Below are positions 3,763 to 10,248 of a stretch of 13,401 bases of DNA, one piece after another; the first letter of the stretch is position 1, and each line of letters starts with the position of its first letter. The notes under the pieces are model-generated. The model worked only from the letters and a program-made list of their open reading frames with translations, was not told the origin of the DNA and did not search any database. Made by a program: the position numbers and the translations under genes. This stretch comes from an uncultured archaeon. Lineage in GTDB: Archaea; Asgardarchaeota; Lokiarchaeia; Sigyniarchaeales; SOKP01. The stretch lies in NCBI GenBank assembly GCA_964388035.1, contig CAYLZE010000130.1, positions 1 to 13,401 of the forward strand. The letters run 5' to 3'.

Positions 3763-5037
3763 ATGGATAATGAATATTATGTGGGTGAAGCCTTAATCGG
3801 AGAAGGTCAAAATTTAGCTCACATTGATTTAATAATAGGTTCAAAACAAGGTCCCATTGGTATTTCCTTTGCTAATAGCATCTCCACTCCCAGCATGGGA
3901 CATGGGGGATTGTTATCTTGCATTAGACCCAATCTTTTATCAAAACCCTATACCCTCATCGTACCCAAAGTGACCATAGAAAAGATGGAAGATGCTAATA
4001 AAATCTTTGGGCCCGCACAAGCAGCCGTGTCGAAAGGAGTTGCAGATGCTGTCGAAGAGGGAATAATTCCCATGGAAAAACTCGATGAATGGGTCATCAT
4101 TGCCAGTGTTTTCATCCATCCTGAAGCTTCTGATTATAGACGAATTTATCAATATAATTATGGTGCCACTAAATTAGCCATTAAAAGAGCCTTGATGGGA
4201 TATCCTCCTATTGAGAAAATATTTTATGATAAGGACCGGGCAAGACATCCCGTGGCAGGTATGAGAGTTCCTAGACTCTGGAGACCCCCGTATATTCAAG
4301 TTGCGCTAGATGATCCTTCCATCGAACATCAGAAAAAAGTGGTTAAAGGCTTACCGAAAAGTGATCGGATCATCTTGGAAATTGGTACTCCTTTTCTTAA
4401 AAAATACGGAATGGAAGCAATTAGTGAAATACGAGAATTAGCGGAAGATAAATTTATTGTTGCTGATTTAAAGACCTTAGATGTGGGGAAACTTGAAGTA
4501 GATTTCGCTTTCGATGCAACTAGCGACGCAGTGGTTGCTAGTGGATTAGCGTCGCCTAGTTCTCTTGACAAATTCATTCTCGAAGCTCAAAGATTAGGGA
4601 TTTATGCTTTTGTGGATACCATGGAATTAACTAATCCCATTGAAAAATTGAAACAATTAAAACAAACTCCCGATGTCGTTATTCTTCATAGAGCCATAGA
4701 TGCGGAAAACGCAGCGACAGGAACTGATGATGCTCAGAAATTGCATTGGAAAAATATCGCCAAGATAAAGGAAATCTATAAAGACCAAAAACTTGTTTCG
4801 GGACGAGATCGCGTGTTAGTAGCAGTGGCAGGAGGCATAGATCACCGATCTGCTCGCTATGCTTTGGAAATGAATGCCGATATTCTTATTGTAGGAAGAT
4901 TTATAACCTCCTCTAAAGACATAAAAAATGCAATGCGTCTTCTTTTAAATAGCTTACCAGGCTATAGCGATATCGATCTCAAACGGGTCCATAGTGAAGA
5001 TGACGATAGCTCTGTAAAAAAACCCGATTGGGATTAA
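3763..5037 (+). CDS. fae-hps: Bifunctional formaldehyde-activating enzyme / 3-hexulose-6-phosphate synthase
   Basis: Fae domain: VGEALIGEG..AHIDLIIGSK, KPYTLIVPKVT, FGPAQAAVSKGVADAV, VFIHP, YNYGATKLAI. HPS domain: YIQVALD, LEIGTPFLK, VADLKTLDVG, LHRAID, VAVAGGI, ADILIVGRFIT. Confidence 0.95.
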   Translation: MDNEYYVGEALIGEGQNLAHIDLIIGSKQGPIGISFANSISTPSMGHGGLLSCIRPNLLSKPYTLIVPKVTIEKMEDANKIFGPAQAAVSKGVADAVEEGIIPMEKLDEWVIIASVFIHPEASDYRRIYQYNYGATKLAIKRALMGYPPIEKIFYDKDRARHPVAGMRVPRLWRPPYIQVALDDPSIEHQKKVVKGLPKSDRIILEIGTPFLKKYGMEAISEIRELAEDKFIVADLKTLDVGKLEVDFAFDATSDAVVASGLASPSSLDKFILEAQRLGIYAFVDTMELTNPIEKLKQLKQTPDVVILHRAIDAENAATGTDDAQKLHWKNIAKIKEIYKDQKLVSGRDRVLVAVAGGIDHRSARYALEMNADILIVGRFITSSKDIKNAMRLLLNSLPGYSDIDLKRVHSEDDDSSVKKPDWD

Positions 5038-5284: not shown

Positions 5285-7786
5285 TTAGCGGATGGGTCGA
5301 GAATTTGCGGTGAAAATTGGACCAATAAATTGAGAATACAATTTTGCATAAGAATCTTGTGTAGATACCATGCTAATAAGTTGCGATTCATCCGCCGTAG
5401 CCGGTGCAATGATAACTTCTTCCGCATCTCTTGTTACTGCATAATATTCTCCAGGGGTGGATAATTGTCTGAATTGAATGTTTCCTAATAATTTCATTTT
5501 ATTGAGGATGGGACTATATACTTCTAAGTCGAAGTTGCTGGTGATCATGAATCTTGCCGCTTTCTTCTGATAAGCCATTTCAGAAACAAATTTCAAAACT
5601 TCGGGTAAAACTTCGGGGATAACAATGATTATGGAGGATTTCACGCGATAAATCATGTCCCTAATGCAAGAAATCAAAGCTGCTCTTCCGACAGTATGCC
5701 AAGTTGTTATTTTTGCTGTTTCTTTGATATTCGAAGAGGCGACATGAATTTCTTTTAATTGATCTTCATTCGTTTCAGCAATATCGGTGGCATCCTTGAT
5801 AGCTTTTATAATATTCGTATTAAAATCTGAAATTATATCTTTTTCTGATTGAATGTTGTTCATAATAGTCGTTGTTAAACTATTCTCGAGCGTGGTTGCA
5901 TTTTCTTGATAAGATTTTTTATGGCGAGTCAAGACTTGCTCAATGCTAGAATCCATTTTAGAGGAAGTTTCATTCCAACCCGTAATTTGTTTAGAAGTGG
6001 TATCAGAAACAAAAGTTTTAGAATTATCAAAATCCATGCGAACTTTATTTAATCGATCTTCGCCCACTTTTTTTCTCTTGGAGACAAAATTATCGATCTC
6101 TCTGATGATGTCTTCAACGATCGTGGATGCATCCTTTTTTCCAGATGTAAATTTAACATCAACATCTTTTATCCAGTCTTCATTTTTAGTCTTAATATCT
6201 TTATCAAAATTACTATAGTGTCTTAACGTTGTCTCTTCATGTCTTTTTATTTCGTCTCCATATTGCATATTATGCTGGGAAACACTACTTTCTAAGGAAT
6301 CTTTTAATTTAATTGTCGTTTCGGAGCAGTCTTTCACGCCCTTTTGTAACGTTGTATCAATTTCTGAGGTCATATCAGTAGCTAAAATCTCTAATTGGGC
6401 TTCAAGTGACTTTTGTGCTTCATTATTTAAACTTTCTGTTTCACTCGAGATGGTTTCAAACTCGTTCGATATCACGGAAGTAATTTCATTTTTCAACTCA
6501 CTAGAAGTGGCTCTAGTATTATCTATATATCCATTACATTCACTTGAAAACGATTCTCTCATTGGCTCCGTGTAAGTAAGGACATCACGAATAACAGCCT
6601 CGTTTCTTGCCTTGTATTTTGCTTTTTTCCCTGCCCAGAAAAATCCCTTTTTTGCTATGTCTTCAGAAAAATCAGTAAAACGATTAGCATGTTCTAACAA
6701 ATTATCAATTAATCTCACGGTAGTGTTCTTGAAATTGGTAGTTTGTTCCGCTAAAGTTTCATGTCGTTTTTCAATTTTAGATTTCAAGTCCGATTGTAGA
6801 TTGTCTGTGGATTTTTGCATTTGACTCTCATGCGTTTTTAATAACTTGGAGATTTGATTTTTTAAATCGTTTACTATTTTTTCCATGCGTTCCAAGTATT
6901 TATCAAGAATTTGCTCCATTTGTGGTTTTAATTCATTAGCAATGCTAGCATGGCGATCCACGTGCTCATCGAGATTTTTCTTTAATTCCATTTTTAATGT
7001 TTCTGCACGCTCATCAAAATCTTTCAACATATCAGCAACAATGGAACTAATTCCTTGTTTAGCAGTCTCGATTTCATTTTGATTCATCTCAACAAAAGCT
7101 TTAGAAATTGCTTTTAAATCGGCATTTAGAGTATCCTTAATATTATGGACTTTCTTTTCAAAAGTTTTGATAGAATTTTTATGAGAATCGGAAATTGAGA
7201 GCAATTCTGAATCCAAACTCTGAAAATCTCCTTTTAATTCAGAATAATCTTTTTCTATATTTTCATGTAATTGACTTTCTAAAGTTTTATTCGCAGAAGT
7301 AAAAGAATTTTTTTTCTCTTCAATGGTAGTTTTTACTTCTTTATACTGATTGTCAGTACTTTGAGAAAACTCTTTAACTTGGGAAGCTACAGCTTTATTA
7401 ATCTCGCCTATTTTTCCTGCTTGTACATCATCTAACTTTTTAAATTGATTCGATTGTTCGACTAATATGTTATTTTTAATTGAAGAGATTTCTTTTTTAA
7501 ATACTTCCGATTCCTTAATGAATAAACTTAAATAGGGTTCTAGAGGGATATATCTATCTAATCCTGCAATAGCACCCTCAATTTTCTTTACAAAACCCTT
7601 CTCTTCTAAAGATGCAGTTATTTTGGTTACCTCATCATATTCGATGCCATCTTCTTCGGAAAACATTAAATAAACTTGGCTTGGCGTTGCTCTGGGAGCT
7701 CGCAAATATCCTAAGTATACTTTTATCTGATTTTCATTCAAGCCATATCGGCTAAATAATTCCTTTGGAAATTCCTTGAGACTCAT
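5285..7786 (-). CDS. TrmB-family winged-HTH protein with a ~600-aa coiled-coil insertion and a TrmB-like C-terminal domain
   Basis: aa ~10-84 match the TrmB HTH (YGLNENQIKVYLGYL...ATPSQV...SLEEKGFVKKIEG...RYIPLEP). aa ~85-690 are K/E/Q/S/D-rich and helical with only two prolines (P288, P408). aa ~695-833 match the TrmB C-terminal/PLD-like fold (TWHTVGRAALISCIRDMIYRVKSSIIIVIPE...VTRDAEEVIIAP). Confidence 0.8.
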   Translation of the reverse strand: MSLKEFPKELFSRYGLNENQIKVYLGYLRAPRATPSQVYLMFSEEDGIEYDEVTKITASLEEKGFVKKIEGAIAGLDRYIPLEPYLSLFIKESEVFKKEISSIKNNILVEQSNQFKKLDDVQAGKIGEINKAVASQVKEFSQSTDNQYKEVKTTIEEKKNSFTSANKTLESQLHENIEKDYSELKGDFQSLDSELLSISDSHKNSIKTFEKKVHNIKDTLNADLKAISKAFVEMNQNEIETAKQGISSIVADMLKDFDERAETLKMELKKNLDEHVDRHASIANELKPQMEQILDKYLERMEKIVNDLKNQISKLLKTHESQMQKSTDNLQSDLKSKIEKRHETLAEQTTNFKNTTVRLIDNLLEHANRFTDFSEDIAKKGFFWAGKKAKYKARNEAVIRDVLTYTEPMRESFSSECNGYIDNTRATSSELKNEITSVISNEFETISSETESLNNEAQKSLEAQLEILATDMTSEIDTTLQKGVKDCSETTIKLKDSLESSVSQHNMQYGDEIKRHEETTLRHYSNFDKDIKTKNEDWIKDVDVKFTSGKKDASTIVEDIIREIDNFVSKRKKVGEDRLNKVRMDFDNSKTFVSDTTSKQITGWNETSSKMDSSIEQVLTRHKKSYQENATTLENSLTTTIMNNIQSEKDIISDFNTNIIKAIKDATDIAETNEDQLKEIHVASSNIKETAKITTWHTVGRAALISCIRDMIYRVKSSIIIVIPEVLPEVLKFVSEMAYQKKAARFMITSNFDLEVYSPILNKMKLLGNIQFRQLSTPGEYYAVTRDAEEVIIAPATADESQLISMVSTQDSYAKLYSQFIGPIFTANSRPIR

Positions 7787-8259: not shown

Positions 8260-9666
8260 TTAGATGCCTGCTAATAGAGAGTTTATTTGATTCGCATACA
8301 AAATTAATAGAATTAGAATTATAATGAATGCAATGCAATATAATTGGTGTACATTAAAAACATTTCCAACATCCACATTTTCCATTCTTTCCTTATACTC
8401 TTTAATTTTTAAATTAAAGAACATTTTTTGGCCTTTTTTTGTAAGTATCAAACTATCCTCGATTTTTTCTATCATGTCTTGTTTGATTAACTTATTAAGA
8501 TGTTTTTCCACGATATCAGCTCCTAAATTATTATAAAAAAAATCCGCAAACCCTCGATAATATAATCTTCCGTGCTTAAGTCCCGTTTCAAATTTTTTAA
8601 TTAAATCTGCTTGGGATATTTTTTCACGACGAATGCTTCCCAACAAATATCCCGTCAATCGATTTTCATAGATCTGGTCGGCGGCTACCTTTATCTCAGT
8701 TATATCAAAATCCTCTTCTTTAGCTAATATTTCCCGCAACACTTCAATACCCTCTTTGAAAATTAGAATGGAAATGATAATTCCGACAATTGCATCAACA
8801 AAATAGAAATGAAAGATTGCAAACGTCAATCCAATTAGCACCCCTAAGGAAATCTTTACGTTTAATTCTGAGTCCTTGGAATCACTTAATAATGACAAAT
8901 TACCCGAGGTCCTACCAATAAGACTCTTTCCATACATTAGACCATAATTTAAAGCAATAGAACATCCCCCTATGAGATAAGCTTGAATTGTAGGTATAAT
9001 GGGAAGGGGATTGAATAACTTCTCAATGCTGTCCCATAATAAAGTAAATCCGGTAATTAACATTAATCCTATAATAATTACACTTGCTAATTTATCTTTT
9101 TTAAAGTAAAAAGCCACCAGATAAATAATACCAATTTTTATGAGATCCGTTAAGTTTTCAAAACCTTCCGAAATCATTCCTTGAGAATCAATTTGAAATC
9201 CAATCAGTATTTTAAAGAACGAGAGAAAGATTAAACAGATTGCTGTTAAAATCATTATGGTGTGCTTATTCATGAGAATTTGCATGTAATGACTGGTAAA
9301 AAGGGTATTACAGAAGGATGCTTCTACGAGTTTTCTACCTTCTGAAGTTAAATTAAGCTGATTCCCATTTTTTATTTCAATCAATTTTTGTTTTTTGGCA
9401 TGTTCTATAAATTCCTTAATATCTTCATCTTCAACTACTAATTGTTTAGTAGAAGAAATAAAAAATGAGCTCATGACTTTTTTAATTTCGTTCAAATCTT
9501 CAATTCCATCATAAATACAACATAAAAAACCATAAAAATAGGAATCGTGACCGCCGTGGCGTTTGGTAGGATAATGCGTTTTTAATAACTCTTGAGCTTC
9601 CCGATGTAAAGCAGTATTCAAGGATTTATTGGCAAATTTTCTTCCAGTTTTTCTGAACGCATACAT
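8260..9666 (-). CDS. Cation diffusion facilitator (CDF)-like transmembrane domain flanked by two winged-helix-like domains
   Basis: aa ~137-310 give six hydrophobic helices with CDF-like motifs (KILIGFQIDSQGMISEGFENLTD; GNLSLLSDSKDSELN; VDAIVGIIISILIFKEG). Both flanks carry wHTH wing-type motifs (KKQKLIEIKNGNQLNLTSEGRKL; LNKLIKQDMIEKIEDSLILTKKGQK). One more hydrophobic helix sits at the C-terminus. Confidence 0.75.
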   Translation of the reverse strand: MYAFRKTGRKFANKSLNTALHREAQELLKTHYPTKRHGGHDSYFYGFLCCIYDGIEDLNEIKKVMSSFFISSTKQLVVEDEDIKEFIEHAKKQKLIEIKNGNQLNLTSEGRKLVEASFCNTLFTSHYMQILMNKHTIMILTAICLIFLSFFKILIGFQIDSQGMISEGFENLTDLIKIGIIYLVAFYFKKDKLASVIIIGLMLITGFTLLWDSIEKLFNPLPIIPTIQAYLIGGCSIALNYGLMYGKSLIGRTSGNLSLLSDSKDSELNVKISLGVLIGLTFAIFHFYFVDAIVGIIISILIFKEGIEVLREILAKEEDFDITEIKVAADQIYENRLTGYLLGSIRREKISQADLIKKFETGLKHGRLYYRGFADFFYNNLGADIVEKHLNKLIKQDMIEKIEDSLILTKKGQKMFFNLKIKEYKERMENVDVGNVFNVHQLYCIAFIIILILLILYANQINSLLAGI

Positions 9667-9738: not shown

Positions 9739-10248
9739 ATGATAATAGAACCGCAAAAATTATTAGACTTTTTAAAAAGTCGAAGAAGCATCCGAAATTT
9801 TAAAGATAAATCTATCTCAGAAAAAGATATTACCATGATTTTAGAAGCGGCTCAATGGACACCCAGTGCTTCGAATAAGCAGCCATGGAGATTTATAGTA
9901 ATTAAGGATAAGGATCTTCTTAAAAAAATATCCGGAACTGCAGTTTATGGTAAATTCCTTAAAAATGCACCGCTCGCTATTGCCATAATTGGAAAAAAAA
10001 CTGAAAATCCAAATTGGTATATTCAGGATGCCACTTTAGCTTCAATGAGCATGATGTTAATGGCTTGGTCCCTCGACATCGGAACTTGTTGGATCGGAAC
10101 TATGGATCGAGAAAAAGTGAAAAACTTCTTGAGCCTAAGCGAAGAAGATTATCTTCTCACGGTATTACCAATGGGATATATTAAAGGGGAAGTCCCAAAA
10201 CCAACGCTCAGAAAAAATCTGGATGAGATTACTGGCGAAATAAGTTAA
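9739..10248 (+). CDS. Nitroreductase family FMN-dependent oxidoreductase
   Basis: SRRSIRNF, ILEAAQWTPSASNKQPWRFIVI, MMLMAWSLDIGTCWIG and LPMGY are nitroreductase hallmarks. Confidence 0.95.
   Translation: MIIEPQKLLDFLKSRRSIRNFKDKSISEKDITMILEAAQWTPSASNKQPWRFIVIKDKDLLKKISGTAVYGKFLKNAPLAIAIIGKKTENPNWYIQDATLASMSMMLMAWSLDIGTCWIGTMDREKVKNFLSLSEEDYLLTVLPMGYIKGEVPKPTLRKNLDEITGEIS

Follow-up and report, generated by a model that had tools for sequence, protein, structure and literature searches.

TrmB proteins are textbook small archaeal regulators, and their relative TrmBL2 is a known chromatin protein. TrmBL2 of Thermococcales (5bpd, 5bpi, 5box, 5bqt) is about 264 amino acids (aa) long and comprises, in order, a winged helix-turn-helix (wHTH), one short inter-domain helix and a phospholipase D (PLD)-like domain without the sugar-binding C-subdomain; the sugar sensor TrmB (2f5t, 3qph) shares the wHTH of family PF01978. 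Here we analyse an 833-aa protein encoded on the minus strand of a 13,401-nucleotide stretch of Asgard archaeal DNA (contig CAYLZE010000130.1 of assembly GCA_964388035.1, from an uncultured Sigyniarchaeales archaeon; this whole stretch is called the window below). The protein has the same order of parts as TrmBL2 (identity 10–11%), but carries a hairpin of about 600 residues in place of the short helix. Both sequence and model suggest a TrmB/TrmBL2-type regulator whose linker helix has grown into a fold-back rod, such that the same two end domains are separated along the chain by a hairpin 44 nm long. We found no published description of the family in full-text searches of PMC and bioRxiv. What appears to be new is a mirrored, 11-residue-quantised series of insertions and deletions (indels) within one orthologous group, and the zonal anatomy of the rod, which includes a candidate His2-Cys inter-arm site with correlated losses. 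The parts of the gene are as follows.

5285..7786, minus strand: whole open reading frame (ORF), 833 aa with a TAA stop; full-length homologues
7535..7786, minus strand: TrmB-type wHTH, aa 1–84; PF01978, paralogue comparison, column counts, charges
6653..7534, minus strand: N-arm, aa 85–378; DSSP helix, periodicity 3.66, rows of 11
6605..6652, minus strand: hairpin tip, aa 379–394, KKGFFWAGKKAKYKAR; helix break, conservation, mirror sums 758–764
5717..6604, minus strand: C-arm, aa 395–690; DSSP helices 382–507 and 510–685, periodicity 3.67, charge −18
5288..5707, minus strand: C-terminal alpha/beta domain, aa 694–833; Z scores, Foldseek, invariant columns

The initial annotation had placed a TrmB helix-turn-helix (HTH) at about aa 10–84 and a TrmB C-terminal domain from about W696, and both assignments hold, the second by fold more than by sequence. 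PF01978 (TrmB) matches aa 13–76 with 33.0 bits (28.6 in the full-length scan; cut-off 25.6). In the AlphaFold2 (AF2) model, aa 694–833 superpose on residues 110–242 of TrmB 2f5t_X, the best structural match, with a VIA Z of 18.2 and a root-mean-square deviation (rmsd) of 1.9 Å over 131 aa; aa 692–832 superpose on TrmBL2 5bpi_C (VIA Z 15.3; rmsd 2.8 Å over 136 aa); 3qph_A gives a Z of 17.7; and the Foldseek list is headed by TrmBL2 and TrmB. The blocks of this domain have predicted local distance difference test (pLDDT) values of 82–88. The sequence evidence is weak: phmmer reaches TrmB 3qph_A at E = 1.5e-3, no Pfam family, including PF11495 (Regulator_TrmB), matches aa 680–833 at E ≤ 10, and the family profile retrieves nothing at E ≤ 0.01 from the PDB sequences, so that the relationship to TrmB rests on the fold. 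PLD-superfamily enzymes (Nuc, Zucchini) match the same fold with Z of 12–15, and no HxKxxxxD catalytic pattern was seen when aa 694–833 were read by eye. The model strongly suggests that the domain adopts the fold of the TrmB effector N-subdomain and the TrmBL2 C-domain, PLD-like and without the HKD motif. Its superfamily signature, read from invariant columns, is R786-D787-x-x-E790 together with P724 and N769. The protein ends at the equivalent of TrmB residue 242; compared with TrmB, it lacks the sugar-binding subdomain (TrmB residues about 245–338) and PF11495, and contains a giant helical insert.

The insert had been described as some 600 nearly proline-free helical residues without Walker motifs, and this description is accurate: only two prolines (P288 and P408) lie between aa 85 and 723, and a pattern check of the 833-aa protein found no Walker A. 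In the AF2 model, which was built on 62 homologues and has a mean pLDDT of 76 and a predicted template modelling score (pTM) of 0.31, DSSP assigns helices to 85–378, 382–507 and 510–685, with a break at 379–381; the pLDDT blocks mirror about residue 383–385 (r = 0.92, equivalent to a block sum i + j of about 765). Hydrophobic residues recur with a period of 3.66 in the N-arm (power 341 vs. a mean of 12) and 3.67 in the C-arm (186 vs. 9), and in a rows-of-eleven layout the pattern keeps its phase over about 27 repeats in each arm. This is an 11/3 hendecad coiled coil, which implies straight helices; with a rise of about 0.148 nm per residue, the arms make a rod of about 44 nm. Structural alignment by VIA places the Smc arm 5xg2 on model residues 261–504, the chemoreceptor hairpin 2ch7 on 227–537 and cohesin 7ogt on 86–687, and each of these ranges is centred near residue 383–386.

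Length variation among the homologues points the same way. Measured between the anchors P84, G381 and W696 in the 62 homologues, the N-arm spans 256–406 residues and the C-arm 274–428 (about 296 and 314 in the 833-aa protein); the two lengths are correlated at r = 0.999, the C-arm always being 12–22 residues longer. In at least six indel events, both arms change by the same amount at mirrored positions (i + j = 758–764), mostly in multiples of 11. The two hot spots and the paired events, numbered relative to the 833-aa protein, are these.

7094..7291, minus strand: N-arm indel hot spot, aa 166–231; homologues differ by 11, 22, 40, 44 or 88 residues
6002..6217, minus strand: C-arm indel hot spot, aa 524–595; the partner indels fall here
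N 190 and C 567: paired indel, +22 and +22; a second 22/22 pair occurs in the 918-aa form
N 171–210 and C 553–592: paired indel, −40 and −40 (the common 751-aa form)
N 221–231 and C 533–543: paired indel, −11 and −11
N 227–237 and C 524–534: paired indel, −11 and −11
N 166 and C 594: paired indels, +44 and +44, and +88 and +88

Because half of 762–764 is residue 381–382, the mirror centre is the glycine of KKG-FFW. The initial annotation had offered, as one of two possibilities, a fold-back antiparallel arm of about 300 residues per side and roughly 45 nm that reunites the two TrmB domains; the mirrored indels, the helix break and mirrored pLDDT of the AF2 monomer, the unbroken hendecad and the structural alignments all favour it, and we are highly confident that the middle of the protein is an intramolecular antiparallel hairpin rod.

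Two known groups of proteins have arms of this kind. SMC, Rad50 and MukB likewise use an intramolecular antiparallel arm, tens of nanometres long, to reunite N- and C-terminal globular parts; unlike them, the 833-aa protein has no ABC ATPase head, hinge or zinc hook, and its gene has no kleisin or Mre11 gene nearby. Since each of ATPase, hinge and hook was tested for and is absent, the protein resembles SMC/Rad50 in shape only. The cytoplasmic hairpin of chemoreceptors (2ch7) is also long and antiparallel, and its length classes also differ by symmetric whole-repeat indels; however, chemoreceptors are built on heptads whereas the rod is built on hendecads, and the rod has no transmembrane or HAMP parts and lies inside a TrmB protein. 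The MCPsignal Pfam domain does not match the 833-aa protein at E ≤ 1, and the resemblance to chemoreceptors is a structural analogy.

The architecture is widely conserved. In a 90%-clustered collection, 337 homologues were found at E ≤ 1e-3, with 45–72% identity over the full length; all named ones come from Asgard metagenome-assembled genomes, and the homologues fall into length classes of 751 (most), 809, 830–833, 875 and 918 aa. An exhaustive search of 1.84 billion representatives gave 184 matches, among them proteins of 578–1794 aa that begin with a TrmB wHTH, continue as apolipoprotein-like helix and finish with the same C-domain. The named members of this wider family are Prometh-, Hod-, Hel-, Baldr-, Frey- and Sigyn-archaeal, and the family (up to 1794 aa) seems to be confined to Asgard archaea, whose genomes hold multiple paralogues of differing length. 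Within the window's own taxonomic family, the orthologue is present in 38 of 40 species-representative genomes, one ORF in each, with the length classes following genera; some relative was detected in 99 of the 201 sampled Asgard genomes (E ≤ 1e-10). In Lokiarchaeia-type genomes, the orthologue passes down by vertical inheritance. A "TrmB family transcriptional regulator" of P. syntrophicum, DSAG12_03376, ranks tenth by identification score (|log prob|) (PMC11284389); its length-normalised abundance is low (PMC11284389), as would fit a long protein, and it is at most a candidate for the rod orthologue.

Positions at which 95% or more of 127 family members agree divide the rod into zones. A conserved neck (aa 86–165 paired with 601–685) is followed by a poorly conserved spacer (166–245 with 520–600), which contains all of the paired indels, then by a conserved mid-arm module (246–320 paired with 446–520) and a conserved tip zone (360–395). 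The mid-arm module holds the two halves of a candidate metal site.

6950..6964, minus strand: H275-x3-H279, N-arm half; conservation, hendecad core, module density
6326..6331, minus strand: D486-C487, C-arm half; conservation, register

H275 is present in 126, H279 in 127 and C487 in 126 of the 127 sequences, and all three occupy hendecad core positions; at position 486, 122 sequences have Asp and 4 have His. Superposing the core patterns of the two arms gives the best fit at i + j = 766 (r = 0.60), a register that places C487 opposite H279 and one turn from H275. The sole sequence without H275 (Tyr) is also the sole one without C487 (Ala), P0123; in P0145, HxxxH and the Cys are both missing. 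Joint loss of His and Cys in these two lineages suggests an inter-arm metal site. In the distant relative P0138 (23% identical), HxxxH lies at 237–241 and the Cys, the only one between wHTH and C-domain, at 447, mirrored about that protein's own tip. From these sequence patterns, we take H275, H279 and C487, with D486, to be a putative metal site between the arms (His2-Cys plus Asp/His), at about even odds, or failing that a direct contact. P288 and G483, both nearly invariant, are close to the site and may form a joint.

The wHTH at the other end of the neck has diverged from its paralogues. The genome encodes 17 TrmB-type HTHs above the Pfam cut-off, 14 of them in frames of ordinary length (162–494 aa); in 12 of these 14, the recognition helix opens with [RK]-x-x-[IVL]-Y. 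The recognition helix of the 833-aa protein, EYDEVTKITASL, is without the canonical Arg/Tyr: in place of [RK]-x-x-[IVL]-Y-x-[IV]-[LM] it has E-Y-D-E-V-T-K-I-T. Family columns 52 and 54 are variable and never hold Arg and Tyr together. Across the orthologous family, the buried positions of the helix (V53, I56, T57, L60) are conserved and the exposed ones vary or are acidic (E55 in 114/127), while the basic residues R29, R32, K67, K68 and R78 of the wHTH are conserved. The net charge of the wHTH is −3 here (family median −5) vs. a median of about +4 for the HTHs of ordinary-length paralogues, measured over roughly comparable windows. Acidic and lacking the canonical recognition residues, in contrast to the TrmBL2 wHTH, the head seems ill-suited to reading DNA sequence, and DNA binding by it is hypothetical. 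In the wing, an AGL insertion (aa 74–76, nt 7559–7567) is shared, among the 127 aligned sequences, only by P0002 and P0003.

The apex of the hairpin has the opposite character. It is a basic-aromatic loop around a three-residue helix break, with the consensus KKGFFWxGKKxKYKAR and no Cys. G381 (123/127), F382 (120/127), F383 (or Leu), W384 (106/127), G386, K387 (125/127), K388, K390, Y391 and R394 are each present in 106–127 of the 127 sequences. The net charge is +4 over aa 373–396 and +8 over aa 379–394, compared with −6 for the N-arm and −18 for the C-arm, and KKGFFWAGKKAKYKAR is the sole strongly basic patch of the protein. Lysines clustered with aromatic residues (Phe, Trp, Tyr) commonly mark peripheral membrane binding, and the effector domain of MARCKS is a basic-aromatic membrane-binding motif of this sort; the tip shares with it the cluster of Lys/Arg with Phe, Trp and Tyr, in composition only and with no homology.

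We favour the following explanation, which as a whole we judge to fall just short of an even chance. The protein is TrmBL2-like, with the single linker helix between wHTH and C-domain expanded to a hendecad hairpin of about 44 nm; its domains, the hairpin, the paired and quantised changes of length, the conservation and the occurrence in Asgard archaea are shown by the data above, and what follows on function is proposed from them. The wHTH and TrmB-type C-domain together form a head; equal pieces of both arms are gained or lost in the variable spacer; and in the mid-arm core, H275 and H279 would face C487 (and D486), probably as a metal-bridged clamp. The basic-aromatic apex would bind a membrane surface, and the head, without canonical DNA-reading residues, would hold a partner, either DNA backbone or protein. 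Such a rod would be a spacer or tether of fixed length lying beneath the membrane, and not a sugar-sensing regulator; this membrane-anchored role is a tentative proposal from sequence. A more specific version, which we consider quite unlikely, is an Asgard-specific quantised molecular ruler whose tip rests on the inner membrane face while its TrmBL2-derived head keeps the nucleoid, or a partner bound to it, at a distance of about 44 nm; the stiffness of the rod would be controlled by a metal-dependent His2-Cys clamp in the middle of the arms. If true, the ruler would be a prokaryotic counterpart of eukaryotic nucleoid-to-membrane spacing systems, and genus-specific rod lengths would be set in 11-residue steps.

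Among prokaryotes, the Asgard archaea are the closest relatives of eukaryotes, and their cells contain a dense nucleoid, have ribosome-rich protrusions and lack an S-layer. A conserved cytoplasmic rod of fixed length with a membrane-type tip is a concrete candidate for an organiser of such a cell interior. The paired 11-residue indels offer a natural experiment on length control in coiled coils, and the His2-Cys site is a candidate switch.

Several points weigh against the favoured explanation. The indel pattern would also arise in an antiparallel homodimer whose helices are unbroken; we consider this arrangement less likely than an intramolecular turn because a conserved Gly-rich break lies at the mirror centre. 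A complex prediction for two copies of the distal hairpin (aa 200–570) scored 0.26 (mark 0.42) and speaks neither for nor against a homodimer. The pLDDT falls to 53–55 at the tip and at 490–520, and the pTM is 0.31. Two further analyses carry no weight on either side: average-product-corrected mutual information (127 sequences, effective number 34) gave no usable anti-diagonal signal, its peaks arising from gap columns shared through the paired indels, and the mirror correlation of column conservation (antiparallel 0.67, parallel 0.70) does not separate the offsets. The packing of the head and the geometry of the His/Cys site come from register arguments only, and D486 directly precedes C487 in the chain, an uncommon arrangement for residues that bind a single metal. 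The basic tip may have nucleic acid, not lipid, as its ligand; the wHTH, which keeps R29, R32, K67, K68 and R78, could bind the DNA backbone as TrmBL2 does; and both the membrane binding and the DNA binding of the rod protein are hypothetical.

Of the other explanations, the one that fares best, although we consider it unlikely, is that the protein is a one-component regulator with a signalling stalk, in which the hairpin relays a membrane signal from the tip or a metal/redox signal from the His2-Cys site to a dimeric DNA-binding head. A wHTH above the Pfam TrmB threshold, symmetric repeat-quantised indels and the match of 2ch7 to model residues 227–537 all suit such a protein; Alexander and Zhulin in 2007 are said to have described symmetric repeat-unit indels as a hallmark of chemoreceptor signalling hairpins. 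The conserved Cys/His site could be the sensor and, like many regulator genes, this one seems to form a unit of its own. The recognition helix, however, is acidic, with variable exposed positions and the canonical Arg/Tyr gone; the family median charge of the wHTH is −5; no conserved target gene lies next to the gene; and the presence of an orthologue in almost all genomes of the family suggests a housekeeping gene more than a niche regulator.

A structural lattice or cytoskeletal element, with rods assembled side by side or head to head into a sub-membrane or cytoplasmic scaffold and a head that is an oligomerisation module only, is in our view very unlikely. In its favour, the HTH is decayed, and the highly conserved surfaces of neck and mid-arm suggest contacts with a partner or with other copies; the hydrophobic stripe of the N-arm is wider than that of the C-arm (up to 5 of 11 positions), and paralogues of differing length coexist in Asgard genomes. 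Against this, the overall composition of the arms (26–33% hydrophobic) fits a two-helix hairpin.

The initial annotation had suggested an ATPase-less, SMC/Rad50-shaped chromatin protein, in which the heads bind DNA and the rods pair by their tips or along their length to bridge or compact it. Its account of the shape is sound, since the antiparallel hairpin arm resembles those of SMC and Rad50 and no ATPase is present, and among solved structures the head is closest to TrmBL2, a chromatin protein. The tenth rank of DSAG12_03376 in P. syntrophicum would also suit a chromatin protein, if DSAG12_03376 is the orthologue. The DNA-bridging or chromosome-organising role has not stood up: the wHTH is acidic and so are both arms, the head has lost its canonical DNA-reading residues, the protein has no Walker A and no SMC_N or Rad50 Pfam match, the apex is a short loop without CxxC hook or hinge domain, and no ATPase gene lies within the window. 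We regard this role as highly improbable. Least probable of all is an apolipoprotein-, phasin- or perilipin-like binder of lipid surfaces whose helices open on lipid and free or sequester the head, in the manner of PhaR on polyhydroxyalkanoate granules: the 11/3 periodicity is typical of lipid-binding amphipathic helices, and Pfam Apolipoprotein (PF01442; 41.2 bits vs. 90) and Phasin (18.6 vs. 28.8) both match, but under their curated cut-offs, the arms are strongly acidic with a narrow hydrophobic stripe, and mirrored paired indels require helix–helix pairing.

The rod ORF is the longest in the window and runs from an ATG to a TAA; its predicted start is correct because the N-terminus MSLKEF is common to the homologues. 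An AT-rich spacer of 473 bp precedes it, a T-rich tract lies beyond its stop, and it appears to be a lone transcription unit. The neighbouring genes in the window are these.

3763–5037, plus strand: Fae-Hps fusion, convergent with the rod gene
8260–9666, minus strand: CDF-type transporter gene, 473 bp upstream of the rod gene
9739–10248, plus strand: nitroreductase

The CDF-type product has a Cation_efflux core (PF01545, 59.7 bits) and a winged helix (HTH_45, 25.8 bits) near its C-terminus, and its gene is not kept beside rod-gene orthologues in other genomes. Nitroreductase and Fae-Hps flank the rod gene here and likewise in the distant orthologue loci L004, L009 and L010. No conserved operon partner was found in the neighbourhoods of five relatives; the neighbours common to their loci are nitroreductase, Fae-Hps and a ribosomal-protein cluster, which looks like inherited gene order and not a functional operon.

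The same genome encodes a second giant TrmB-headed protein, P0290 (905 aa; G000:C8:88-2805, minus strand; locus L003), with PF01978 at aa 10–68, an apolipoprotein-like middle scoring 85 bits and a C-domain 23% identical to that of the 833-aa protein; its recognition helix reads Y-N-K-I-K. Its low-confidence AF2 model (pLDDT 58.8) has breaks at 245–247, 417–423 (FGKNFF) and 587–592, mirrored about residue ~420. Two homologues of P0290 were found among 5.8 billion proteins; one, P0302, has an unpaired insertion of 105 residues and is uninformative.

Two long members of the wider family, the rods of Baldrarchaeia (1238 aa) and Helarchaeota (1316 aa), have homologous Cys-rich genes of 286–287 aa lying 5–15 bp upstream (L005:5132-5995 and L006:5125-5985, both plus strand; 26% identity, E = 4e-13). 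The Cys-rich protein belongs to no Pfam family. A homologue lies on contig 8 of the window's genome (L008:8155-9015, minus strand), not adjoining a rod gene, and is followed by a 402-aa protein with weak HEAT/Cnd1-like matches. A single in-frame TAG occurs within a 359-aa open frame around a Cys-rich homologue (G000:C8:90592-91104, minus strand; locus L007), and the initial annotation had noted an in-frame TAG joining two frames at positions 1–1152 of the window; TAG may be read through or recoded in this genome.

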